A DNA stretch of 64,000 nt, from sequence record JX128259; one strand, written 5' to 3'. Below are positions 10,253 to 61,438 of the stretch, one piece after another. Positions within the stretch are counted from its first letter, which is position 1; the number at the start of each line of letters is the position of its first letter. The position numbers and the translations under genes were made by a program. The notes beneath the pieces were generated by a model. That model saw nothing but the letters and a program-made list of their open reading frames with translations, had not been told where the DNA came from and did not search any database. The DNA is from Escherichia phage ECML-134.

Positions 10253-11257
10253 TTAACTTACCAATTCAATCCAAGCCGGACGAAGTACATCTTGTACCAT
10301 TTTAACTAATTCCTTCTTAATCAAAGAAGGATTATCCGCTTGAGTTAGAATAATACCTTCACGAGAAGTTTCTTCCAAAATATCTTGAACAGTTAGTCCC
10401 ATCACCTTTCCAAAATCTTTAGGACCAATTTCGCCAATTTTAGAAATAACGTTATTTACCCGGTTCAGTGTAACGTAACAAGCTAAAATCCCCACCAATT
10501 TGTTATCAGCTTCTGACAGTTCAACTTTAGCTTTAATAGGCTTATCAGACTTTTTCTTTTCACTAAATTTAGAGTTCTTGCATTTAATCGCCACACGATT
10601 GCGATTAGGCAGCCAAGAAGGATAACAAGGTTTCAATACATATCCTTCAGCAGTAAATACTTCGCCTTTTGCTTCGGCATTCCAAATGCATTTATTTGCA
10701 TCAACTAATCCGGCATGGTCTACTGTAAAATTATAATCTTGGACGACAGAATCTAAATCATTTGGCAATTTAATAAGCTCTTCAAATTTACCGCGACCTA
10801 AAAGTGGAGCCATTTTAAATTTAAACGTATTACAGAATGATTCCATCATATAATCATCGACATAAGTCACATCACCACTTTCTGTAGTAACAATAATGTC
10901 AAATACATAAAAATCTTTATCACCATAATCGACATTCTTCTGAATGCCAGGTCCAGCAAATTCGCCAAAGACTTGATAAGATACAACTGCCGAAGTTTCC
11001 ATAATATCTTGTACTGCTTTAATGGAATCAGCGTAATTCTTTAGAATAATTTCATACCCAAAGAAATCTTCAGCAGGAAGAATAGGACCAGTACGTTTAG
11101 CGCAAGTCACTTTATCGCGTTCAATAATCAGTGAGAAATTTGTGCCATGAATCTTTTCACGAGCTACCCATTCGCCGCCAGTCAATCCTAAGCTGTAAAG
11201 TTTTTCAATGAATTTAGAATTGTAATGATTTTCAAGACTGCTATACTTTTTAAACAT
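10253..11257 (-). CDS. rnlB: RNA ligase 2 (RnlB)
   Basis: 334 aa; nucleotidyltransferase motif I KIHGTN near the N-terminus; T4 position after gene 24. Confidence 0.93.
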
Positions 11258-11799: not shown

Positions 11800-11830
11800 C
11801 TTTTAAAATGAAGAAAGGGGCCGAAGCCCC
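11800..11830 (-). terminator. Hairpin (GGGGC-uucg-GCCCC on the - strand) plus T-rich tract after hoc
   Basis: GC stem at 11817-11830, T-rich run downstream on the - strand. Confidence 0.55.
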
Positions 11831-11836
11831 TTATGA

Positions 11837-12034
11837 TTATGGATAGGTATAGATGATACCAGTTTCTAAAGCAGTTTTATGAATGATATATCCATTACGT
11901 GATTCTTGGACATCAACTTCTGGATAGTCTTTCATCATCTTCTGAAGAGTGTAACGATGCAGGTAGTATTTACTATCTGGATCTTCAGTTTTCCAATCTT
12001 TACCTTCTTCAGTCATTTTTTGGATTTCATCCAT
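11837..12034 (-). CDS. hoc: Hoc C-terminal segment, in frame with the upstream hoc ORF
   Basis: 65 codons in the same frame as 12050..12967, separated from it by TAG plus five sense codons (C G W W V). Confidence 0.7.
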   Translation of the reverse strand: MDEIQKMTEEGKDWKTEDPDSKYYLHRYTLQKMMKDYPEVDVQESRNGYIIHKTALETGIIYTYP

Positions 12035-12049
12035 AACCCACCAACCGCA

Positions 12050-12967
12050 CTAGATGTAAGCTGAGCTACGGTGTGGAAGAGGATGAACATAAGGTAATTC
12101 ACCTTCTGGTTCTGGAGCAACTTTATCAGTTACCTGAACTTGACCTGTGGCTTTAACTGTTTTACTATCATAGTCAGTTGCTGTAACGACAGCAGTAACT
12201 TCAATAGTTTGACTTCCAATAGATGAGGTATCAACAGTATATACGTTAGTTGACCCTTCCACAGGAGAAGAATCTTTCTTCCATGAGTAAGTAATTTGTG
12301 CTGCTTCAGGTGCGCCAGTAACATTAGCAGTAAATGTAGCCGAAGTATCTTGCTGAACATTAATAGAAGGAGGAGTCAATGTAACCTGTGGATTCATTGT
12401 CTTCTTATTAACTGTCAATGATACTTCATTGGAAGTAACTTCTTTTGCATCATAATCTGTCGCGGTTACTTGAGCCACACACTTAATTGTTTTAACTCCG
12501 CTTGTGGTAGGAGTGTAATTGAATGTAGCAGAAGTTGCTTCGCCCACAGGAGAACCGTCAACGTACCATTGATACGTAGCAGATGCACCTGGTGGCTGCG
12601 AAGCTAAGGCAGCGGTAAATTCAATAGCTGTTCCAATTACTCCAGCGTCAGGGCTATTAGGAGTTACAGCTAGGGTAGTCGTTTGTGTCTTATTTTGAAC
12701 TGTGATAGTTGTAGAAGCTTCTGCTGTTTCAGCTTCAGCTTCTGGAACTGGGTTTGTTGCAACTACTTTAATAGTCTTTTGACCGGCAGGTCCTTTTAGT
12801 ACATAGCTAAAAGTTGCTGACGTTTCTTCCTGCGGAGCGTCGTCTACAGTCCAAGCATATGTAATAGGTCCATCTCCAGTTTGACCACTGGGTGTAGCAG
12901 TAAACTGCTGAGTCTGATCTATAACTCCAGTAGGTGTTTTAGGAGTTATATCAACGGTAAAAGCCAT
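12050..12967 (-). CDS. hoc: Hoc (outer capsid decoration protein), N-terminal 305 codons ending at an in-frame TAG
   Basis: Repeated Ig-like segments (TATDYD... motifs); matches recalled T4 Hoc; 305 + 1 + 5 + 65 = 376 codons, the T4 Hoc length. Confidence 0.9.
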   Translation of the reverse strand: MAFTVDITPKTPTGVIDQTQQFTATPSGQTGDGPITYAWTVDDAPQEETSATFSYVLKGPAGQKTIKVVATNPVPEAEAETAEASTTITVQNKTQTTTLAVTPNSPDAGVIGTAIEFTAALASQPPGASATYQWYVDGSPVGEATSATFNYTPTTSGVKTIKCVAQVTATDYDAKEVTSNEVSLTVNKKTMNPQVTLTPPSINVQQDTSATFTANVTGAPEAAQITYSWKKDSSPVEGSTNVYTVDTSSIGSQTIEVTAVVTATDYDSKTVKATGQVQVTDKVAPEPEGELPYVHPLPHRSSAYI

Positions 12968-12976
12968 AAGTTATCC

Positions 12977-13657
12977 TTATTTTAATGTTATGAAAGAAGA
13001 ATTGCGTGTTTCACGAATTAGAACTGATCCGTCACGATTAATGTAGTAAATTAAGCTAAATAAAGTTTGGTGTGCCGACGCGTGTTCAAAACTAGTTGGG
13101 TGAGATTTCCAATCCGGAGTTTCAGCAATCCACTGGTAAATCCACCAAGGAACAGTGCAGAATCCTGGATTTTTTCCAATCAGCTGAAGATTCGGACTAA
13201 AGTTTTCCGGAAGAGTAAATACAGACGGCTTTTCAGATTCAATAATCTCAGCTACAGCCTGTTCGAATTTTTCTTCAACAAAAGGAGTATCTTCAATCAA
13301 AACATCGGTATTTTCAGGAATTTTATCCGTTTCTATGACTTCAATTTTAATGTCAGATTTAACCGGAGAATCAATCAGAAGTGCTGCTTCTGGATTGACT
13401 TCTTCATCGTCATATTTTAATCCCTCTGCAGCATCTGCAGCATCGATTAAGTCTTTAATAGATAACCCATCAGTCTCTGGCATAGGTTCACTAGCGAGCT
13501 TCTGGAGGGCTTCTTCAATATCAATAACGATATTATCAAAAGATTTATTCTTTTTGACCTTTATACCAAACTGTTCAGCATATTCAGCTAATTTAGCTTT
13601 AGCTTCTTTATTATCATCAAGAGCCTTCAACTCTGCAATATAATCTTTATCTATCAT
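12977..13657 (-). CDS. inh: Inh, inhibitor of prohead protease gp21
   Basis: 226 aa, T4 position next to hoc. Confidence 0.85.
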   Translation of the reverse strand: MIDKDYIAELKALDDNKEAKAKLAEYAEQFGIKVKKNKSFDNIVIDIEEALQKLASEPMPETDGLSIKDLIDAADAAEGLKYDDEEVNPEAALLIDSPVKSDIKIEVIETDKIPENTDVLIEDTPFVEEKFEQAVAEIIESEKPSVFTLPENFSPNLQLIGKNPGFCTVPWWIYQWIAETPDWKSHPTSFEHASAHQTLFSLIYYINRDGSVLIRETRNSSFITLK

Positions 13658-14326: not shown

Positions 14327-15835
14327 ATGGATATTAAAGTACATTTTCACGACTTCAGTCATGTACGCATCGATTGTGAAGAGAGCACGTTCCACGAATT
14401 AAGAGATTTCTTTTCGTTTGAGGCCGATGGATATAGATTTAATCCTCGCTTCAGATATGGCAACTGGGATGGACGAATCCGTCTTTTAGATTATAATCGC
14501 CTTCTTCCGTTCGGCTTAGTTGGGCAAATTAAAAAGTTCTGTGATAACTTTGGCTATAAAGCCTGGATTGACCCACAAATTAACGAAAAAGAAGAATTAT
14601 CAAGAAAAGATTTTGATGAATGGCTTTCTAAATTAGAAATCTATTCAGGAAATAAAAGAATTGAACCACATTGGTATCAAAAAGATGCAGTGTTCGAAGG
14701 ATTAGTTAATCGTCGCAGAATTCTTAATCTTCCAACATCCGCAGGTAAATCTTTAATTCAAGCTTTGCTTGCTCGGTATTATTTGGAAAATTATGAAGGT
14801 AAAATTCTTATCATTGTTCCAACAACTGCTCTAACAACTCAGATGGCTGATGACTTTGTTGACTATCGTTTATTCAGTCATGCAATGATAAAGAAAATCG
14901 GTGGCGGAGCATCAAAAGATGATAAATATAAAAATGATGCACCAGTCGTTGTTGGTACATGGCAAACTGTAGTAAAACAACCAAAAGAATGGTTCTCACA
15001 GTTTGGAATGATGATGAATGATGAATGCCATCTTGCTACAGGAAAAAGTATTTCATCTATCATATCAGGTTTAAATAACTGCATGTTCAAATTCGGTTTG
15101 TCTGGTTCATTACGAGATGGCAAAGCCAATATCATGCAGTATGTTGGAATGTTTGGTGAAATATTTAAGCCAGTAACGACTTCTAAATTAATGGAAGATG
15201 GACAAGTAACTGAGCTAAAAATTAATAGTATTTTTCTTCGCTATCCCGATGAGTTCACTACTAAATTAAAGGGAAAAACTTACCAAGAAGAAATAAAAAT
15301 TATTACTGGGCTTAGTAAAAGAAATAAATGGATCGCTAAATTAGCTATTAAGCTTGCGCAAAAAGATGAAAACGCTTTTGTCATGTTTAAACATGTATCG
15401 CATGGTAAAGCTATTTTCGATTTAATTAAAAATGAATACGATAAAGTTTATTACGTATCAGGGGAAGTTGATACCGAAACCCGCAATATAATGAAAACCT
15501 TAGCTGAAAATGGTAAAGGAATAATTATAGTAGCGAGTTATGGCGTATTTTCTACTGGTATTTCAGTTAAAAATCTGCATCACGTTGTTTTAGCGCACGG
15601 TGTTAAATCAAAAATCATTGTATTACAAACAATCGGTCGTGTATTACGTAAGCATGGTTCTAAAACAATCGCAACGGTCTGGGACCTCATAGATGATTGT
15701 GGTGTTAAGCCAAAATCTGCTAATACGAAAAAGAAATATGTTCATTTGAACTATCTTTTAAAACACGGCATTGATCGTATTCAGCGCTACGCAGATGAAA
15801 AATTTAATTACGTAATGAAAACAGTTAATTTATAA
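14327..15835 (+). CDS. uvsW: UvsW, SF2 DNA/RNA helicase
   Basis: 502 aa; Walker A-like PTSAGKS and DECH box. Confidence 0.93.
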   Translation: MDIKVHFHDFSHVRIDCEESTFHELRDFFSFEADGYRFNPRFRYGNWDGRIRLLDYNRLLPFGLVGQIKKFCDNFGYKAWIDPQINEKEELSRKDFDEWLSKLEIYSGNKRIEPHWYQKDAVFEGLVNRRRILNLPTSAGKSLIQALLARYYLENYEGKILIIVPTTALTTQMADDFVDYRLFSHAMIKKIGGGASKDDKYKNDAPVVVGTWQTVVKQPKEWFSQFGMMMNDECHLATGKSISSIISGLNNCMFKFGLSGSLRDGKANIMQYVGMFGEIFKPVTTSKLMEDGQVTELKINSIFLRYPDEFTTKLKGKTYQEEIKIITGLSKRNKWIAKLAIKLAQKDENAFVMFKHVSHGKAIFDLIKNEYDKVYYVSGEVDTETRNIMKTLAENGKGIIIVASYGVFSTGISVKNLHHVVLAHGVKSKIIVLQTIGRVLRKHGSKTIATVWDLIDDCGVKPKSANTKKKYVHLNYLLKHGIDRIQRYADEKFNYVMKTVNL

Positions 15836-51771: not shown

Positions 51772-54700
51772 ATGGCCGAGATTAAAAGAAAGTTCAGAGC
51801 AGAAGATGGTCTGGACGCAGGTGGCGATAAAATAATCAACGTAGCTTTAGCTGATCGTACCGTAGGAACTGACGGTGTTAACGTTGATTACTTAATTCAA
51901 GAAAACACAGTTCAGCAATATGATCCAACTCGTGGATATTTAAAAGATTTTGTAATCATTTATAATAATCGTTTTTGGGCAGCAACGGATAATATTCCAA
52001 AACCTGCTGGAAATTTTAATAGAATTCGTTGGAAAGCATTACGTACTGATGCCGTATATACAACCGTATCATCTGGACCATATCAATTAAAATCCGGAGA
52101 AGCAATTTCAGTAGATACATCAGTTGGCAATGACATTGAATTTACTTTACCACCTTCTCCGCTTGATGGAGAAACCGTAATAATTCAAGATATCGGTGGA
52201 AAACCTGGCATAAATCAGGTTAAAATAAATTCTTCAAATCAGAGTATTGTCAATTTTAGAGGTGAACAGGTACGTTCAGTTTTAATGACTCATCCAAAGT
52301 CACAGATGGTATTCATTTTTAATAATCGTTTGTGGCAAATGTATATTGCTGATTATAGCAGAGAAGCTGCGATTGTTACTCCATCGACTGCATATCAAGC
52401 ACAATCTAATGATTTTATCGTACGTAGATTTACTTCTGCCGCACCGATTAATGTTAAACTTCCAAGATTTGCCAATCATGGAGATATCATTAATTTCGTT
52501 GATTTAGATAAATTAAATCCACTTTATCATACAATTGTTACAACATATGATGAAACGACGTCAGTGCAAGAAGTTGGAACTCATTCCATTGAAGGCCGTA
52601 CATCGATTGACGGTTTCTTGATGTTTGATGATAATGAGAAATTGTGGAGATTGTTTGACGGGGATAGTAAAGCACGTTTACGCATTATAACAACTAATTC
52701 TAATATTCGTCCAAATGAAGAAGTCATGGTATTTGGCGCGAATAACGGAACAACTCAGACAATTGAGCTTCAGCTTCCGACTGATATTTCTGTTGGTGAT
52801 ACTGTTAAAATTTCCATGAATTACATGAGAAAAGGACAAACAGTTAAAATCAAAGCTGCCGGTGAAGATAAAATTGCTTCTTCAGTTCAATTGCTGCAAT
52901 TCCCAAAACGTTCAGAATATCCGCCTGAAGCTGAATGGGTAACAGTTCAAGAATTAGTTTTTAACGGTGAAACTAATTATGTTCCAGTTTTACAACTTGC
53001 TTATATAGAAGATTCTGATGGAAAATACTGGGTTGTACAGCAAAACGTTCCAACTGTAGAAAGAGTAGACTCTTTAAATGCTTCTACTAGAGCAAGATTA
53101 GGCGTAATTGCTTTAGCTACGCAAGCTCAAGCAAATGCTGATTTAGAAAGTTCTCCACAAAAAGAATTGGCAATTACTCCAGAAACGTTAGCTAATCGTA
53201 CTGCTACAGAAACTCGCAGAGGTATTGCAAGAATAGCAACTACTGCTCAAGTGAATCAGAACACCACATTCTCTTTTGCGGATGACCTTATCATCACTCC
53301 TAAAAAGCTGAATGAAAGAACTGCTACAGAAACTCGTAGAGGTGTTGCTGAAATTGCTACGCAGCAGGAAACTAATACAGGTACTGATGATACTACAATC
53401 ATCACTCCTAAAAAGCTTCAAGCTCGTCAAGGTTCTGAATCATTATCTGGTATTGTAACTTTTGTATCTACGGCGAGTGCTACTCCAGCTTCTAGTCGTG
53501 AATTAAATGGTACAAATGTTTATAATAAAAACACTAATAATTTAGTTGTTTCGCCAAAAGCACTTGATCAGTATAAAGCTACTCCAACGCAACAAGGCGC
53601 AGTAATTTTAGCAGTTGAAAGTGAAGTAATTGCTGGACAAAGCCAAGAAGGATGGGCAAATGCGGTTGTAACGCCAGAAACGTTACATAAAAAGACATCA
53701 ACTGATGGAAGAATTGGTTTAATTGAAATTGCTACGCAAAGTGAAGTTAATACAGGAACTGACTATACTCGTGCAGTCACTCCTAAAACTTTAAATGACC
53801 GTAGAGCAACTGAAAGTTTAAGTGGTATAGCTGAAATTGCTACGCAAGTTGAATTCGACGCAGGCGTCGACGATACTCGTATCTCTACACCATTAAAAAT
53901 TAAAACCAGATTTAATAGTACTGATCGTACTTCTGTTGCTACTCTATCTGGATTAGTTGAATCAGGAACTCTCTGGGACCATTATACCCTTAATATTCTT
54001 GAAGCAAATGAGACACAGCGTGGTACACTTCGTGTAGCTACACAAGTTGAAGCTGCTGCAGGAACATTAGATAATGTTTTAATAACTCCTAAAAAGCTTT
54101 TAGGTACTAAATCTACTGAAGCGCAAGAAGGTGTTATTAAAGTTGCAACTCAGTCTGAAACTGTGACTGGAACATCAGCAAATACTGCTGTATCTCCAAA
54201 AAATTTAAAGTGGATTGTGCAGAGTGAACCAACTTGGGCAGCAACTACTCTGATAAGAGGGTTTGTTAAAACTTCATCTGGTTCAATTACATTCGTTGGT
54301 AATGATACCGTTGGTTCAACGCAGTCATTAGAATCATATGAGAAAAATGGTTATGCAGTATCACCATATGAATTAAATCGCGTATTAGCAAATTATTTGC
54401 CATTAAAAGCAAAAGCTGTAGATAGTAATTTATTAGATGGTCTAGATTCGCTCCAGTTCATTCGTAGGGACATTGCACAAACAGTTAATGGTTCACTAAC
54501 CTTAACCCAACAAACGAATCTGAGTGCCCCTCTTGTATCATCTAGTACTGCTACATTCGGTGGATCAGTTTCAGCAAATAGTACATTAACTATTTCTAAT
54601 ACTGGAACGGCAACTCGTCTGATTTTTGAGAAAGGACCTCAAACTGGAACAAACCCGGCTCAAACGATGACAGTCAGAGTGTGGGGAAATCAATTTAGTG

Positions 54701-55641
54701 GGGAATCAGACACAACACGTTCTACCGTATTTGAAGTTAGTGATGAAACGTCTAGTCATTTTTATTCTCAGCGTAATAAAGCTGGAAATATAACATTTAA
54801 TATCAACGGTACAGTAACACCGATAAATGTTAATGCTTCAGGAACATTGAATGCAAATGGCGTAGCAACATTTGGTAATTCAGTCACTGCAACTGGTGAA
54901 ATTATTTCTCGAAGCGCAAATGCTTTCCGTGCTATTAACGGAAATTATGGTTTCATTGTTCGCAATGATGGGTCAGTAACGAATTTTATGCTTACTGCAT
55001 CGGGTGATCAAACCGGCGGATTTAATGGATTGCGTCCTTTAGCTATTAATAATGCATCTGGCCAAGTAACGATTGGTGAAAGCTTAATCATTGCAAAAGG
55101 TGCTACTATAAGTTCAGGCGGTTTAACTGTTAACTCGAGAATTCGTTCTCAAGGTGTTAAAACATCTGATTTATATACCCGTGCGCCAACATCTGATACA
55201 GTAGGATTCTGGTCAATTGATATTAACGATTCAGCCACTTATAATCAATTCCCTGGTTATTTTAAAATGGTTGAAAAAACTAATGAAGTGACTGGACTTC
55301 CATATTTAGAACGCGGTGAAGAAGTTAAATCTCCTGGTACATTGACTCAGTTTGGTAACACGCTTGATTCGCTTTATCAAGATTGGATTACTTATCCAAC
55401 GACTCCAGAAGCACGTACCACTCGCTGGACGCGTACATGGCAGAAAACTAAAAATTCTTGGTCAAGTTTTGTTCAGGTATTCGATGGAGGTAATCCTCCT
55501 CAACCTTCGGATATAGGAGCAATCCCATCTGATAATGGAATAATAGGTAATCTTACTATTCGTGATTTCTTACGAATTGGTAATGTTCGCATTATTCCTG
55601 ACCCAGTGAATAAAACTGTTAAATTTGAATGGGTTGAATAA
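51772..55641 (+). CDS. 34: Long tail fibre proximal subunit gp34
   Basis: 1289 aa, same as T4 gp34; internal ~30-aa repeats. Confidence 0.95.
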   Translation: MAEIKRKFRAEDGLDAGGDKIINVALADRTVGTDGVNVDYLIQENTVQQYDPTRGYLKDFVIIYNNRFWAATDNIPKPAGNFNRIRWKALRTDAVYTTVSSGPYQLKSGEAISVDTSVGNDIEFTLPPSPLDGETVIIQDIGGKPGINQVKINSSNQSIVNFRGEQVRSVLMTHPKSQMVFIFNNRLWQMYIADYSREAAIVTPSTAYQAQSNDFIVRRFTSAAPINVKLPRFANHGDIINFVDLDKLNPLYHTIVTTYDETTSVQEVGTHSIEGRTSIDGFLMFDDNEKLWRLFDGDSKARLRIITTNSNIRPNEEVMVFGANNGTTQTIELQLPTDISVGDTVKISMNYMRKGQTVKIKAAGEDKIASSVQLLQFPKRSEYPPEAEWVTVQELVFNGETNYVPVLQLAYIEDSDGKYWVVQQNVPTVERVDSLNASTRARLGVIALATQAQANADLESSPQKELAITPETLANRTATETRRGIARIATTAQVNQNTTFSFADDLIITPKKLNERTATETRRGVAEIATQQETNTGTDDTTIITPKKLQARQGSESLSGIVTFVSTASATPASSRELNGTNVYNKNTNNLVVSPKALDQYKATPTQQGAVILAVESEVIAGQSQEGWANAVVTPETLHKKTSTDGRIGLIEIATQSEVNTGTDYTRAVTPKTLNDRRATESLSGIAEIATQVEFDAGVDDTRISTPLKIKTRFNSTDRTSVATLSGLVESGTLWDHYTLNILEANETQRGTLRVATQVEAAAGTLDNVLITPKKLLGTKSTEAQEGVIKVATQSETVTGTSANTAVSPKNLKWIVQSEPTWAATTLIRGFVKTSSGSITFVGNDTVGSTQSLESYEKNGYAVSPYELNRVLANYLPLKAKAVDSNLLDGLDSLQFIRRDIAQTVNGSLTLTQQTNLSAPLVSSSTATFGGSVSANSTLTISNTGTATRLIFEKGPQTGTNPAQTMTVRVWGNQFSGESDTTRSTVFEVSDETSSHFYSQRNKAGNITFNINGTVTPINVNASGTLNANGVATFGNSVTATGEIISRSANAFRAINGNYGFIVRNDGSVTNFMLTASGDQTGGFNGLRPLAINNASGQVTIGESLIIAKGATISSGGLTVNSRIRSQGVKTSDLYTRAPTSDTVGFWSIDINDSATYNQFPGYFKMVEKTNEVTGLPYLERGEEVKSPGTLTQFGNTLDSLYQDWITYPTTPEARTTRWTRTWQKTKNSWSSFVQVFDGGNPPQPSDIGAIPSDNGIIGNLTIRDFLRIGNVRIIPDPVNKTVKFEWVE

Positions 55642-55649
55642 GAGGTATT

Positions 55650-56765
55650 ATGGAAAAATTTATGGCAGAGTTTGGACAAGGATATGTCCAAACGCCATTT
55701 TTATCGGAAAGCAATTCAGTAAGATATAAAATAAGCATAGCGGGTTCTTGCCCGCTTTCTACTGCGGGACCATATGTTAAATTTCAGGATAATCCCGTTG
55801 GAAATCAAACATTTAGTGCAGGTCTTCATTTAAGAGTTTTTGACCCTTCTACGGGAGCATTAGTTGATAGTAAGTCATATGCTTTTTCTGCTTCAAACAA
55901 TACAACATCTGCCGCTTTTGTCAGTTTCATGAATTCTTTGTCAAACAATAAACTTGTTGCTATATTAACTAGCGGAAAGGTTAATTTTCCTCCTGAAGTG
56001 GTATCTTGGTTAAGGGAAGCAGGAACTTCAGTTTTTCCATCAGATTCCGTATTGTCAAGATTTGACGTATCATATGCTGCTTTTTACACTTCTTCTAAAA
56101 GAGCTATCGCATTAGAGCATGTTAAACTAAGTAATAGAAAAAGCACAGATGACTATCAAACTATGTTAGATGTTGTATTTGATAGTTTAGAAGACGTTGG
56201 AGCGACAGGATTTCCAAAAAGAACTTATGAAAGCGTTGAACAATTTATGTCTGCGGTTGGAGGAACTAATAATGAAATTGCGCGATTGCCAACTTCAGCT
56301 GCTATAAGTAAACTTTCTGACTACAATTTAATTCCTGGTGATGTTCTTTATCTTAAAGCACAGTTATATGCTGATGCTGATTTACTTGATCTTGGAACTA
56401 CAAACATATCCATTCGTTTTTATGATGCATCAAATGGATATATTTCCTCTACCCAAGCTGAGTTTACTGGGCAAGCTGGGTCTTGGGAATTAAAGGAAGA
56501 TTATGTAGTTGTTCCTGAAAATGCAGTCGGATTTACTATATATGCACAGAGAACTGCTCAAGCTGGTCAAGGCGGAATGAGGAATTTAAGCTTTTCTGAA
56601 GTATCAAGAAATGGCGGCATTTCAAAACCTGCCGAATTTGGCGTCAATGGTATTCGTGTTAATTATATCGGTGAATCCTCTTCACCTCCAGATATAATGG
56701 TACTTCCTACACAGGCATCGTCTAAAACTGGTAAAGTGTTTGGACAGGAATTTAGAGAAGTTTAA
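55650..56765 (+). CDS. 35: Long tail fibre hinge protein gp35
   Basis: 371 aa, T4 position. Confidence 0.9.
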   Translation: MEKFMAEFGQGYVQTPFLSESNSVRYKISIAGSCPLSTAGPYVKFQDNPVGNQTFSAGLHLRVFDPSTGALVDSKSYAFSASNNTTSAAFVSFMNSLSNNKLVAILTSGKVNFPPEVVSWLREAGTSVFPSDSVLSRFDVSYAAFYTSSKRAIALEHVKLSNRKSTDDYQTMLDVVFDSLEDVGATGFPKRTYESVEQFMSAVGGTNNEIARLPTSAAISKLSDYNLIPGDVLYLKAQLYADADLLDLGTTNISIRFYDASNGYISSTQAEFTGQAGSWELKEDYVVVPENAVGFTIYAQRTAQAGQGGMRNLSFSEVSRNGGISKPAEFGVNGIRVNYIGESSSPPDIMVLPTQASSKTGKVFGQEFREV

Positions 56766-56769
56766 ACTG

Positions 56770-56795
56770 AGGGAGCCTTCGGGTTCCTTTTTTCT
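56770..56795 (+). terminator. Terminator hairpin (GGGAGCC-uucg-GGUUCCC plus T-run) after gene 35
   Basis: GC stem with one G-U pair followed by TTTTTTCTTT. Confidence 0.6.
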
Positions 56796-56796
56796 T

Positions 56797-56804
56797 TATA
56801 AATA
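56797..56804 (+). promoter_or_regulatory. Late promoter TATAAATA upstream of gene 36
   Basis: Exact TATAAATA 24 nt upstream of the gene 36 ATG. Confidence 0.6.
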
Positions 56805-56827
56805 ATATTAAAATAAAGGGGCATACA

Positions 56828-57517
56828 ATGGCTGATTTAAAAGTAGGTTCAACTGTGGGTGGATCTGTCATTTGGCATCAAGGAAATTTTCCATTGAATT
56901 CAGCCGGTGACGATGTACTCTACAAATCATTTAAAATATATTCAGAATATAATAAACCGCAGGCAGCTGATAACGATTTCGTTTCTAAAGCTAATGGTGG
57001 CACAAAGTCTAGAGGTTTCCAAAAAGAAGTAGAATTTAAAGAAGGCGTTAAGATTTCTGCGACGTTTTCTGGTGGTTCAGACCTGAATGGGTTATATTCT
57101 GGCAATGGAGATGGAGCTTCCAGAGAAAAAGCTAACATGGATTTACATTCATGGTACGGCATTGGTATTTGGAATACATGCACAGGTGATGGGGTCCAGG
57201 GACGCACAATCTGGTTTAATGCCAGGCGTGGTACAATTGAAACAGTTGGCGATATTGTTTCAGGCCGACAAGTTATTTCTAATGCTTCAGTACCGACCGG
57301 CCCAGCACACTTAACTCGCAAAGATTATGTCGATGGAGCAATAAATACTGTTACGACAAATGCAAACTCTAGAGTGTTACGATCTGGTGACACTATGACA
57401 GGTAATTTAACAGCACCAAACTTTTTCTCGCAGAATCCTGCATCTCAACCCTCACATGTTCCACGATTTGACCAAATCGTGATTAAGGATTCTGTTCAAG
57501 ATTTCGGCTATTATTAA
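56828..57517 (+). CDS. 36: Long tail fibre distal connector gp36
   Basis: 229 aa, T4 position. Confidence 0.9.
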
Positions 57518-57525
57518 GAGGACTT

Positions 57526-60500
57526 ATGGCTACTTTAAAACAAATACAATTTAAAAGAAGCAAAACTGCAGGTCAACTTCCTGCTGCTTCAGTATTAGCC
57601 GAAGGTGAATTGGCTATTAATTTAAAAGATAAAACAATTTTCACAAAAGATGACTCAGGCAATGTTATAGAATTAGGTTTAAAATATGGAGGAACAATTG
57701 ATGGTTCTTTAACTGTTAATGGAAATATAATTGGAAATTTAACAGGTAACGCTGCAACTGCAACGAAATTAAAAACAGCACGAAAAATTAATGGTATATC
57801 CTTTGATGGGTCAAAAGATATCACGCTAACTCCATCTGACATAAATGTCAATAGCACAACGTTTATAAAAAATAACGGCGAATTACCTGTTGACGCTAAT
57901 TTAGATGAATATGGGCCCACTGAAGAGTATCTTGGCGTTTGGTCGAAATCTACTTCAACAAATGCGCAACCGGCAAATAAATTCCCAGAAGAAAATGCCG
58001 TAGGTGTACTAGAAGTATTTGTGGCCGGTCAATTTGCTGGTACTCAGAGATATACTGTAAGATCTGGTAACGTATATGTTCGATCTTTGTCTGCTAAATG
58101 GAACGGTGTTAACGGTCCGTGGGGAGTTTGGCGTAATGTTCAAGCGTCAACTCGTCCACTTTCACAAACGATTGACCTTGATAGCTTGGGAGAATTAGAA
58201 CATTGCGGCTTATGGCGAAATAGTTCAAGTTCTATCGCATCGTTTGACCGTCATTATCCAGAAGAAGGAGCAGCCGCACAAGGATTTTTGGAAATTTTTG
58301 AGGGTGGTTTATACACAAGAACTCAACGTTATACAACTAGATTTGGTGTTGTTTATACTCGCTGTCTTGCTGCTGCATGGGATGCATCTGCGCCTAAATG
58401 GGGACCGTGGCAACAAGTCGGTAATGTCACACCGGCGACTTTCTATGACGGAGACCTGAATGATTTTAAAGCTCCTGGGTTATATAACATTTTAGGCACT
58501 GATGCCGTTATTAACTGTCCTACAGGTGAAGGTTTGCCGACTGTTATTGTTGGTTTGCTGGAAGTTAAACAGCGTGCTTCTGGCGGTGCTATTTTCCAAA
58601 AATTTACTACTGCCGGAACGGCTTCAACTACTCGCGATCGTATTTTTGAGCGTGCATATACTGGTGGTGCGTGGGGTGCATGGAACGAAGTATATACATC
58701 TTATTCTCTGCCAATTACTTTGGGTATGGGTGGTATTAAAGCTCAATTAGCGGAGTTAGATTGGCAAACCTTTGATTTTGTCCCTGGTAGTATGTTTAGT
58801 GTTCCTTTGAACAAAATAAAGAATATGCCAGCAAATATGGATTGGGGCACGATTGATGGAAACCTGGTTATGTTTTCCGTTGGTCCTAGCGAACGCACTA
58901 GCACAGGACGTACTGTTCAGATTTGGCGCGGCACCGTATCCCAGACAAACTACCGTTATTTTGTCGTTCGTGTGTTCGGTAATTCTGGAAATAGAACTTG
59001 CACAGTTCGTCGTGTTGTTCTTGAAGATGGTCGCCACACATGGACAGCTCAACAAGATTTTAATGGCGCAGTTAACTTTAACTCTACTGTTAACCTTAAT
59101 AACACTACCACATTTAAAACAGAAGTTAAATTTCGCTCATTGAATGCATTCCGTATGTATGGCGGAAAATTTGGTACATTTTTACGTAATGATGGAGAGA
59201 GTCTTTATATTCTTTCCACCGACGAAGATGATCAACATGGAAACTTTAATACAAATAGACCTTTCCGTTATGAATTAAGAACTGGTGATGTTACTTTGGG
59301 TGGTGCTAGTGGTGCTAACGTTTTAAAATTAAAACGTGATTCTCTCACCGCATTTTTTGGTGGTGATATTAACATGAAAGGCACGATGACTTTTGACGCC
59401 GGACGTTTAGGATCACGAGATTATTTTAAATTTAACCATTGGGGTGATAGTAATAATGCTCGTGATAACATTATTCAGTTAGAAGATAGCAAAGGCGTTC
59501 ATTTTTCCACTGAACGTACTTTAGCGACTGGTGCAATTAAAACTAGATTCTTTGGCGAAACATTCACTGACGGGACATTATACCTAAATCAGATGAATAA
59601 TAGTTCTGAACGATTCTCTATCAACAATTGGGGAAGTTCAGAAGTTGGTCGCGCGGCAGTATTGGAAGTCGGCGATTCCAAAGGTTATCACTTCTATACG
59701 GAACGTAGAACAGATGACACCGTTTTATTTTCTGTAGCTGGTGCTTTGACCGTGCGTGGACCTAACGGAATAACCATCAAAAACTCAACTGGTGCACGCC
59801 ATATCTGGTTTAGAGATGACAGCGAATCGGAAAAGGCTGTTATTTGGGCGACCGATGAGGGTATTTTACATATTCGCAATAACAACGGTGGACAATTTAG
59901 TCATCACTTCCAGGGCGCAATGATTAAACTGGAAGGGCGTGTTCCTTATGATGCAACAAAGGGGATTATCCGTGGTGAAGTTGATGGTGGTGCATATGTT
60001 GCATGGAGAGACCGCCCTGCTGGTTTGTTGGTTGACTGCCAGAAAAGTATTGACAGTGCTCATGCTGTTTGGAAAGCGGTTGATTGGGGGCGTCAATATA
60101 TCGCTGCTATGGACGTTCACTGTCCGGGTGATGGTAATAATACTGCGACAGCGATTCTTCATGTTCAGGCTGCTGATTATCAATTCCACGCAAGCGGAGA
60201 ATTCGTTACCAGTGGTAACGGAAACTTTAACGATGTGTATATTCGTTCTGACCGTCGTCTGAAAATTAATGTTGAAGATTATACCGGAAATGCGTTAAGT
60301 TTGATTGGTAAGCTGAAAGTGAAAACTTACGATAAAGTTAAATCTCTTAAGGACCGTGAAATTATCGGTCATGAGATTGGCATTATCGCACAGGATTTAC
60401 AAGAAATATTACCGGAAGCGGTGAAATCTTCAAAAGTTGGCAATCTTGATAATCCAGACGATGTTCTGACAATTTCTAACTCGGCAGTGAATGCTCTTTT

Positions 60501-60600
60501 AATTAAGGCTATTCAGGAAATGAGTGAAGAAATTAAAGAATTGAAAACTCCTTTCTTTACTAAAATTGCTCGCAAAATTAGTAAATATTTTAAATTCTAA
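57526..60600 (+). CDS. 37: Long tail fibre distal subunit gp37 with C-terminal intramolecular-chaperone (S74-like) domain
   Basis: 1024 aa; C-terminal ~120 aa ([14 protein letters not shown]...[20 protein letters not shown]...) resembles auto-cleaving tail-fibre chaperone domains. Confidence 0.93.
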
Positions 60601-60606
60601 CAACAA

Positions 60607-60621
60607 GGGGGCAACGCCCCC
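60607..60621 (+). terminator. Hairpin (GGGGGC-aac-GCCCCC) after gene 37
   Basis: Perfect 6-bp G/C stem 7 nt after the gp37 stop; short T-run. Confidence 0.45.
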
Positions 60622-60637
60622 CTTTGGAGTATAAATT

Positions 60638-61438
60638 ATGGCAGTAGTTGGTGTTCCTGGTTGGATTGGAAGTTCAGCCGCAAATGAAACAGGACAAAGA
60701 TGGATGAGTCAAGCGGCTGGACAATTAAGATTGGGTGTTCCTTGCTGGATGAGTCAATTTGCAGGTCGCTCGCGAGAAATTATTCATACTGTAGGAGCAA
60801 ACCACAATTTTAATGGTCAGTGGTTCCGTGATAGATGCTTTGAAGCTGGCGGTGCACCTATTGTATTCAATATTGTTGGTGATATCGTTTCTTATTCTAA
60901 AGATGTACCGCTTTTCTTTATGTATGGTGACACTCCTAACGAATACGTTGTCCTTAATATTCATGGTGGTGTCCATATGTGGGGTCGAGGTGGTAATGGT
61001 GGATACACTCACTCAGGTGGAGATGGTAACGGTACACAAGGCGGTCATGTTATTCAAAATGATATCGGTGGACGGCTTCGTATTTGGAACTACGGTGTTA
61101 TAGCTGCTGGCGGTGGTGGCGGTGGTGGTATTGCATATCGTCCACACTCAGGGGCAAACTGGCAAGATATCGGTGGCGGTGGCGGTCGACCTTTCGGTGG
61201 TGCTGGCGGTGGCGGTTATTCCGGTGGTGCTGCTTCTTATGAAGGTCCGGGTGGTGGTTACAACTATGGTAACGCACACTCCGGCGCGGGTGGTAATGCT
61301 GGCGCTGCTGGTCAGAATGCATGGTCTGATGGCGGTAAAGTTCTTAAAGTTGGTGTTGGTGGTGCTTCTGGTCATGCCGTGTTTGGATCTTCTCCAACGT
61401 GGCAAAACGTTGGAATAATATATGGTCCAAGAGTATAA
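60638..61438 (+). CDS. 38: gp38 receptor-recognising adhesin (T2-type, glycine-rich motifs)
   Basis: 266 aa; several poly-Gly tracts (GGGGGGG, GGGGG, GGAGGGG) separated by short variable segments. Confidence 0.88.

Follow-up and report, generated by a model that had tools for sequence, protein, structure and literature searches.

The hoc gene in the window, the 64,000-nucleotide stretch of DNA analysed here, is interrupted at codon 306 by a single in-frame amber codon, and this lesion (TGG→TAG, hereafter W306am) is very probably a genuine, inherited amber allele of the non-essential hoc gene, carried by a small Tequatrovirus lineage that comprises the phages ECML-134 and vB_EcoM_SCS4 and whose virions are predicted, from the sequence, to be Hoc-less. 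At this locus the Ig domains and the capsid-binding domain are not joined in a single open reading frame (ORF), owing to the TAG at codon 306, which makes the locus a nonsense allele of hoc and not a functional hoc gene.

Translation of hoc (12967..11837, minus strand) yielded 377 codons with stops at codons 306 and 377 only, and the ORF listing placed the 305-aa and the 65-aa ORF in one common frame. The first-pass annotation had described a single in-frame TAG in a minus-strand hoc frame whose segments (305 + 1 + 5 + 65) add up to 376 codons, the length of T4 Hoc; the stop was indeed located at codon 306, with the same frame on both sides, and the translation reproduced the codon count. The minus-strand letters at the site read ...GCT TAC ATC TAG TGC GGT TGG TGG GTT ATG GAT GAA..., in which the next in-frame ATG (12034..12032, minus strand) encodes Met312. 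T4 Hoc, a protein of 376 aa, carries Trp at position 306, and across 61 nt around the TAG a single nucleotide separates the T4 DNA from the window (TGG versus TAG). On the coding strand, the amber lesion corresponds to a G→A transition; the base 3' of the stop is T (UAG-U in the message). The earlier proposal that the stop lies one transition away from TGG is thereby borne out, as comparison with T4 and the relatives gives TGG (Trp) at codon 306. Downstream of the TAG, 69 of the 70 codons specify the same residue as T4 Hoc, and the probability of 70 open codons at the local base composition is 0.007; together, these two values rule out chance as the reason for the open downstream frame.

A 1.2-kb query around the TAG matched the vB_EcoM_SCS4 record ON506924.1 at 100% identity (record coordinates equal window coordinates plus 96000), and the GenBank annotation of SCS4 lists the locus as two CDS, URQ05371.1 (305 aa) and URQ05370.1 (65 aa), each named 'capsid and scaffold protein'. 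The next-best hoc match was T4_ev240 with 94.5% identity, and most of the 653 matching records fell between 80 and 95%, a range that is expected given that the Ig-domain part of hoc is hypervariable. The parts of the split gene and the element that follows it are listed in the table.

Table. Features of the interrupted hoc locus (window coordinates)
Feature	Position	Strand	Description
hoc N-terminal ORF, codons 1-305 + TAG	12050..12967	-	Three Ig-like domains plus residues 281-305 (strands beta1-beta2)
Amber TAG, Hoc codon 306	12052..12050	-	TGG/Trp in T4 and all sampled relatives
Five codons, Cys307-Gly-Trp309-Trp310-Val311	12035..12049	-	Between the stop and Met312
hoc C-terminal ORF, Met312-Pro376 + TAA	11837..12034	-	Three-helix bundle, beta3-beta4, conserved ESRNG loop
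Terminator-like GC hairpin + T-run	11815..11832	-	5 nt 3' of the hoc TAA

The predicted product of codons 1-305 (31.9 kDa, pI 4.4) retains only 25 of the 96 capsid-binding-domain residues. Its ORF matched the Pfam families Ig_3, I-set and PKD, at or close to their cut-offs, as well as PHROG 1149 ('Hoc-like head decoration', E=1e-74), and its identity to T4 Hoc was 232/280 over residues 1-280 and 24/25 over residues 281-305. The latter value, together with the 69/70 found downstream, covers the capsid-binding domain, all residues of which are encoded in frame around the TAG. The predicted Met312-Pro376 product comprises 65 residues (7.9 kDa) and was matched end to end (E=2e-43) by PHROG 21694, a 66-position 'Hoc-like head decoration' family, with PHROG 1149 matching its C-terminus; the PHROG 21694 match indicates that stand-alone C-fragments had already been called before SCS4 existed. 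The codons for Cys307-Val311 are lost from both predicted products and contain the conserved gp23*-contacting residues Trp309 and Trp310, while the stretch GGTTGGTGGG within them (minus strand) forms an incidental Shine-Dalgarno-like element. The hoc transcription unit normally ends at the hairpin, and the gene context is otherwise intact: the order rnlB (10253-11257), 24.2-like, 24.3-like, hoc and inh (12977-13657), all on the minus strand, is that of T4, with the hoc locus adjoining gene 24.

The position of the stop can be read against the near-atomic cryo-EM model of Hoc (Fokine et al. 2023; PMC10385173), in which the capsid-binding domain (residues 281-376) consists of a three-helix bundle mounted on a four-stranded sheet and docks onto each of the six gp23* subunits. 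The contacts to gp23* are located on the sheet (Tyr293, His295, Tyr304, Trp306, Gln354, and Tyr360), with further ones provided by Trp309, Trp310, Arg300, and the conserved Glu355-Gly359 loop; the most strongly conserved of these contacts do not include Trp306 (PMC10385173). Since Trp306 touches gp23*, codon 306 itself specifies one of the contacts, and the interruption comes within the domain, past strand beta2. The first-pass annotation had predicted the loss of a C-terminal capsid-binding segment, and that loss stands; its placement required correction, because the stop lies within domain 281-376, at a gp23* contact residue, and not merely upstream of the domain. The Met312-376 peptide lacks beta1-beta2 and all three contact tryptophans, and residues 306-311 are found in neither piece. 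With the domain cut in two and these residues absent from both pieces, we infer that neither Hoc fragment should bind capsids and that the virions are probably Hoc-less.

The allele proved to be rare among relatives. In the annotated phage collection, searched without the ECML-134 records JX128259 and NC_025449, megablast matched all 61 nt around the TAG in one of 513 phage records, namely SCS4, and the count of TAG versus TGG at codon 306 in phage genomes was 1 versus ~512. Since a few wobble positions in the flanks are variable, chained 30-mers were also used, built for six TAG-bearing and four TGA-bearing flank haplotypes, so that any 28-nt megablast seed had to span the mutated base; across 50,697 phage records, the TAG/TGA 30-mer search returned no match besides SCS4. 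Degenerate-pattern scans found TAG in no contig versus TGG in 22 contigs of IMG/VR, TAG in no contig versus TGG in 25 contigs of the JGI metagenomes, and no TAG match in the GTDB representative genomes. Trp306 was retained in all ~20 aligned relatives, down to ~70% nucleotide identity. Given that no metagenome, IMG/VR contig or further phage genome carried the allele, two isolates provide the only evidence for its circulation in nature. Contigs with a stand-alone 65-aa ORF were considered as additional carriers: two of them (L039 and L040) were rejected, having TGG at codon 306 and different upstream defects, and in two others (L038 and L041) the ORF begins at the contig edge. Downstream of the stop, SCS4 showed 6-11 synonymous differences from close relatives and no private non-synonymous one; apart from the stop, its sole non-synonymous change in this region, D328E, is common to other phages. 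Relatives that end Hoc at this point and continue into a diverged frame, which the first-pass annotation had named as evidence against its reading, did not appear among these sequences, and the sole other carrier, ECML-134, keeps the downstream frame intact.

The link between SCS4 and ECML-134 is the exact identity of two annotated proteins. By exact-sequence look-up, the 305-aa product is identical to ECML-134 AFO10703.1/YP_009102652.1 and the 65-aa product to ECML-134 AFO10702.1/YP_009102651.1. ECML-134, whose source was fresh or salt water, is deposited as ATCC PTA-7949 and GenBank JX128259, was published in 2012, was sequenced by another group than SCS4, and is a component of the FDA-cleared EcoShield cocktail (PMC3530527). 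SCS4 is a Tequatrovirus from Kazakhstan wastewater that was sequenced by Illumina MiSeq and assembled with SPAdes at a depth of >1000x; according to its authors, ECML-134 is its closest whole-genome relative, with 98.17% identity (PMC9697832). As a check on the independence of the two records, 20 SCS4 proteins were looked up against the ECML-134 products. Inh, RnlB, SegE-like, gp23, gp24, gp34, gp37, gp38, gp41, NrdD, and gp5 were identical in sequence, several of the identical proteins being found in these two phages only, whereas rIIA, DexA, Dda, gp12, Wac, and both modB fragments differed, with a 7-nt insertion in the SCS4 modB. These differences reveal SCS4 as a separate mosaic genome that has long blocks, including hoc, in common with ECML-134. 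Because the hoc block and many of its neighbours are 100% identical at the protein level, the two records are not phylogenetically independent. Nevertheless, the same split gene was reached by two sequencing projects roughly a decade apart, which makes it very probable that the stop is real and inherited.

These data bear directly on whether the A at 12051 might be a sequencing or assembly error, or a carry-over from the ECML-134 reference, with the real SCS4 carrying TGG and an intact hoc. Such an origin could be suspected since the Genome Detective environment was used and the SCS4 genome ends were set by comparison with ECML-134 (PMC9697832), since every sampled window protein is identical to ECML-134, and since in the related phage OQ031495.1 codons 305-307 are precisely covered by a run of N, marking a troublesome spot in at least one assembly. 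However, a consensus base substitution is very unlikely at >1000x Illumina depth with SPAdes, the split gene had been obtained independently for ECML-134 a decade earlier, and the SCS4 sequence is its own in rIIA, DexA, Dda, gp12, Wac, and the 7-nt modB insertion, which shows that it is not a copy of the reference. A generally poor assembly was likewise rejected: when every T4 ORF of at least 50 aa was compared with the SCS4 genome by tblastn, an internal stop turned up in a single annotated T4 gene, hoc, arguing against an error-ridden assembly. The remaining tblastn flags consisted of antisense pseudo-ORFs, stops 5' of the true start (nrdG and nrdC.11), a shorter 55.3 C-terminus, and uvsW/uvsW.1, the last being a known discrepancy noted in the T4 reference annotation. 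An artefact is thus very unlikely, and the sequencing error that the first-pass annotation had left as an option loses most of its weight, given the identical 305-aa and 65-aa products recorded for ECML-134 and the depth of the SCS4 data.

If the stop is real, the two pieces of the gene could in principle still be of use to the phage, and the 65-aa Met312-Pro376 peptide could be synthesized by one route only, reinitiation at Met312. The Met312 AUG lies 15 nt downstream of the stop, and a GGUGG motif preceding it pairs with the anti-Shine-Dalgarno sequence at -5.4 kcal/mol, stronger than 91% of random ATG contexts; the median for real starts in the window is -5.8 kcal/mol. Reinitiation at Met312 is plausible on these values; however, no more than 2-3 nt separate GGUGG from Met312, and the motif is nothing beyond the Gly-Trp-Trp codons themselves. 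In a split but functional gene, the C-peptide or both fragments would occupy the Hoc site, or the free Ig fragment would act as an antibody or mucin decoy, and the allele would be kept for that reason. The occurrence of the allele in two isolates from different continents, ~15 years apart, would fit such a role, as would the Shine-Dalgarno-like GGUGG, with its AUG shortly after the stop and a pairing energy typical of real starts, and the existence of unusual Hoc architectures in which short or non-Ig proteins are built on the same C-domain (PMC10385173; L025). Yet residues 306-311, including the three contact tryptophans, are in neither piece, the sheet and its hydrophobic core are halved, the Shine-Dalgarno spacing is short, and the motif is forced by the Gly-Trp-Trp codons. 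Moreover, the arrangement was found in no other phage or metagenome searched, other stand-alone C-fragments stem from different, scattered lesions, a pattern of random inactivation, and the carriers are near-identical over the hoc block, so that persistence of the allele needs no selection. We therefore regard a functional role of the split gene as highly improbable. A specific form of this idea holds that W306am has been maintained by selection (ECML-134 in the USA before 2012, SCS4 in Kazakhstan ~2020), either through loss of capsid-bound Hoc combined with secretion of a soluble three-Ig fragment, which would for example allow escape from anti-Hoc antibodies or alter mucus retention, or through a 65-residue peptide that caps the Hoc site; we consider this scarcely probable, and the reading of the fragments as useful products finds little support.

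Whether the TAG is read as a stop in these phages was addressed through their tRNA genes and codon usage. In the complete 166.8-kb SCS4 genome, ARAGORN detected nine tRNAs (Arg-TCT, Asn-GTT, Tyr-GTA, Met/Ile-CAT, Thr-TGT, Ser-TGA, Gly-TCC, Leu-TAA, and Gln-TTG), none with a CUA anticodon, and within the 64-kb window it found no tRNA genes. A phage-encoded amber suppressor was accordingly rejected (0/9 tRNAs with a CUA anticodon). Codon reassignment was also rejected, as TAG terminates 12 of the 148 long ORFs (TAA 101 and TGA 35) and an internal stop occurs in hoc alone. The stop is missing in ~560 related sequences, and the site is therefore not a conserved recoding site. In E. coli, a UAG followed by U is reportedly a context of efficient termination and poor suppression. 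The hosts used to isolate and propagate SCS4 were clinical E. coli, not laboratory suppressor strains, and the phage needs no suppressor because hoc is dispensable. The least probable of the alternatives is hence that full-length Hoc is made in useful amounts through a host or phage suppressor tRNA, programmed read-through or reassignment: the 70 downstream codons are preserved, and an insertion of Gln, Ser or Tyr at a residue outside the most conserved contacts might be tolerated, but the phage tRNAs lack the required anticodon, TAG is a routine terminator that lies in frame in no other annotated gene, the stop is not shared by relatives, the UAG-U context is reportedly unfavourable for suppression, and preservation downstream is expected anyway for a lesion that is years to decades old. 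Among the options raised by the first-pass annotation, a suppressible or read-through amber is thus disfavoured by the missing CUA-anticodon tRNA and the routine use of TAG, and a nonsense allele is upheld by the single TGG→TAG change, the Trp in every relative examined, the lack of a phage suppressor tRNA and the normal role of TAG as a terminator.

[quoted passage not shown] This fragment would be devoid of Trp306, Trp309, Trp310, the three-helix bundle, beta3-beta4, and the ESRNG loop, and should not dock at the centres of the gp23* hexamers. Termination-reinitiation may produce a little of the Met312-Pro376 peptide, in which half of the sheet and the three contact tryptophans would be missing. 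As in T4 HAP1 or in phages with a hoc deletion, the virions would be Hoc-less, with no loss of viability in culture. The allele most likely originated as a neutral G:C→A:T transition, and W306am appears to be recent in evolution, since the downstream codons show no decay. Intact downstream codons are what is expected for a lesion that is years to decades old, and they provide no argument for function.

Among the surface proteins of T4-type heads, Hoc is the most immunogenic; it is also the Ig-like adhesin on which the 'bacteriophage adherence to mucus' idea is based, and in mammals T4 without Hoc (HAP1) shows a different behaviour. If our reading is true, ECML-134 (EcoShield) and SCS4 (a therapy candidate) would be natural Hoc-null strains, a status that bears on the immunogenicity, clearance, aggregation, and mucosal retention of applied phages. 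SCS4 raised no phage-specific antibodies in mice, and SCS57 likewise raised none (PMC12309589). The allele offers a testable, partial explanation of the SCS4 antibody result, one that is not specific, as SCS57, with an unrelated allele, gave the same outcome. For annotation, the two CDS named 'capsid and scaffold' or 'Hoc-like' in both records should be merged into one pseudogene. Our literature search returned no searchable paper linking ECML-134 with Hoc, and the SCS4 papers PMC9697832 and PMC12309589 contain no mention of Hoc; the status of both phages as carriers of a hoc allele thus seems to have gone unremarked so far. W306am is a routine loss of function in a dispensable gene, and its value is practical rather than conceptual.

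The classical T4 ambers are sense-to-UAG changes in essential genes, conditional-lethal and kept on supD/E/F hosts. W306am resembles them in the type of lesion and in the behaviour expected on suppressor strains, and differs from them in that hoc is dispensable, so that it needs no suppressor and would have no plating phenotype. The closest parallel is T4 HAP1 from the Dabrowska lab, in which hoc has spontaneously acquired an ochre codon (C496T, Gln166→TAA); this phage is viable, and its capsid lacks Hoc by ELISA (PMC10580926). Both are spontaneous, single-transition nonsense mutations in a Tequatrovirus hoc; however, the HAP1 ochre lies at 44% of the gene, in Ig domain 2, and was selected from T4 in the laboratory, whereas the W306am amber lies at 81% of the gene, in the capsid-binding domain, leaves three Ig domains translatable, and was found in environmental isolates. 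The Hoc(-) and Hoc(-)Soc(-) T4 phages engineered in the Rao lab, which serve as standard platforms for in vitro display and vaccines, have capsids that lack Hoc; they are fully infectious, and their free Hoc sites accept recombinant Hoc (PMC10385173). Those phages carry deliberate deletions; in contrast, the W306am gene is complete apart from one base, and its Hoc-less capsids are predicted here from the sequence. Among natural isolates, the hoc gene of vB_EcoM_IME537 is also in two pieces, but through a +1 frameshift near codon 157, and OE5505 and BYEP02 carry stand-alone hoc C-fragments of 86 and 59 aa that start at residues 291 or 318; in none of these three is there a stop at codon 306. 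The hoc lesions are thus scattered across isolates, which points to recurrent inactivation, the signature of neutral loss.

Beyond the interrupted hoc, modB is a second accessory gene that is inactivated in SCS4. Relative to T4, the SCS4 gene carries an extra 7 nt (GGCAGTC), with substitutions close by, and this insertion breaks it into two ORFs whose products were found in SCS4 only and are absent from ECML-134. An insertion of this kind is not typical of Illumina error. The tblastn screen of T4 ORFs for internal stops also flagged uvsW, and this flag was rejected as false since the T4 RefSeq annotation used as the reference, which carries a note on sequence discrepancies, still fuses uvsW and uvsW.1 into a single product of 587 aa.

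Our comparisons further revealed broken or fragmentary hoc genes in other genomes. In vB_EcoM_IME537, a +1 frameshift around codon 157 has led to hoc being called as two overlapping CDS, and this phage is a further deposited Tequatrovirus whose hoc is broken. Lone C-terminal pieces of Hoc are annotated in several further genomes and are numerous enough to form a family of their own, PHROG 21694. In OQ031495.1, the record of Escherichia phage MRostami-2023e from Iran, which is marked UNVERIFIED, 20 kb of sequence contain just two N-runs, each of them within hoc, and the haplotype flanking the shorter run is that of SCS4. The position of this shorter run may be a coincidence, or it may mark an ambiguous spot in that assembly.

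Protein comparison of SCS4 (Kazakhstan) with the commercial phage ECML-134 (USA) points to a striking block-mosaic relationship between the two isolates. Their long-tail-fibre proteins gp34, gp37, and adhesin gp38 are exactly identical, as are Inh, RnlB, gp23, and NrdD, the latter four being seen in no third phage, and differences were observed in rIIA, DexA, Dda, gp12, and Wac. Compared with T4, where genes 39 and 60 are separated by 60.1 and mobA, SCS4 encodes the topoisomerase II large subunit in one ORF; it therefore appears to lack the region that holds the translational bypass element of T4 gene 60. The tRNA cluster also differs from that of T4 (eight genes), as Asn-GTT and Tyr-GTA are present while the Pro tRNA is absent.

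Features in SCS4 and in other genomes. L-numbers denote retrieved loci (L006 and L007, SCS4 outside the window).
Feature	Position	Genome	Detail
gp34-gp38 long-tail-fibre region	window 51772-61438	SCS4
uvsW	window 14327-15835 and downstream	SCS4	502-aa ORF, then separate uvsW.1
modB, split	L006:11786-12416 (ON506924.1 record coordinates)	SCS4	59-aa and 161-aa ORFs
Topoisomerase II large subunit	L006:2458-4275	SCS4	single 605-aa ORF
tRNA cluster	L007:18419-19821	SCS4	nine genes
N-run	L044:1507-1568	OQ031495.1	62 N, hoc Ig domain 3
N-run	L044:1768-1775	OQ031495.1	8 N, exactly hoc codons 305-307
hoc	L004:534-1665	NC_054921.1, vB_EcoM_IME537	two overlapping "Hoc-like head decoration" CDS
Stand-alone Hoc C-terminal fragment P0007		vB_EcoM_OE5505	86 aa
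Stand-alone Hoc C-terminal fragment P0008		168.5-kb contig within E. coli assembly	65 aa
Stand-alone Hoc C-terminal fragment P0009		BYEP02	59 aa
Two hoc paralogues	L025:747-2761	IMGVR_UViG_2974544603_000001	in tandem, same strand

Each of the two hoc paralogues of IMGVR_UViG_2974544603_000001 carries the conserved capsid-binding domain (…AYIWCGWW…ESRNGY…) at its C-terminal end. One, of 314 aa, has an N-terminal part without Ig-like appearance, and the other, of at least 345 aa, is Ig-rich. The same has been described for phages Muldoon and PG7 (Fokine 2023, PMC10385173).
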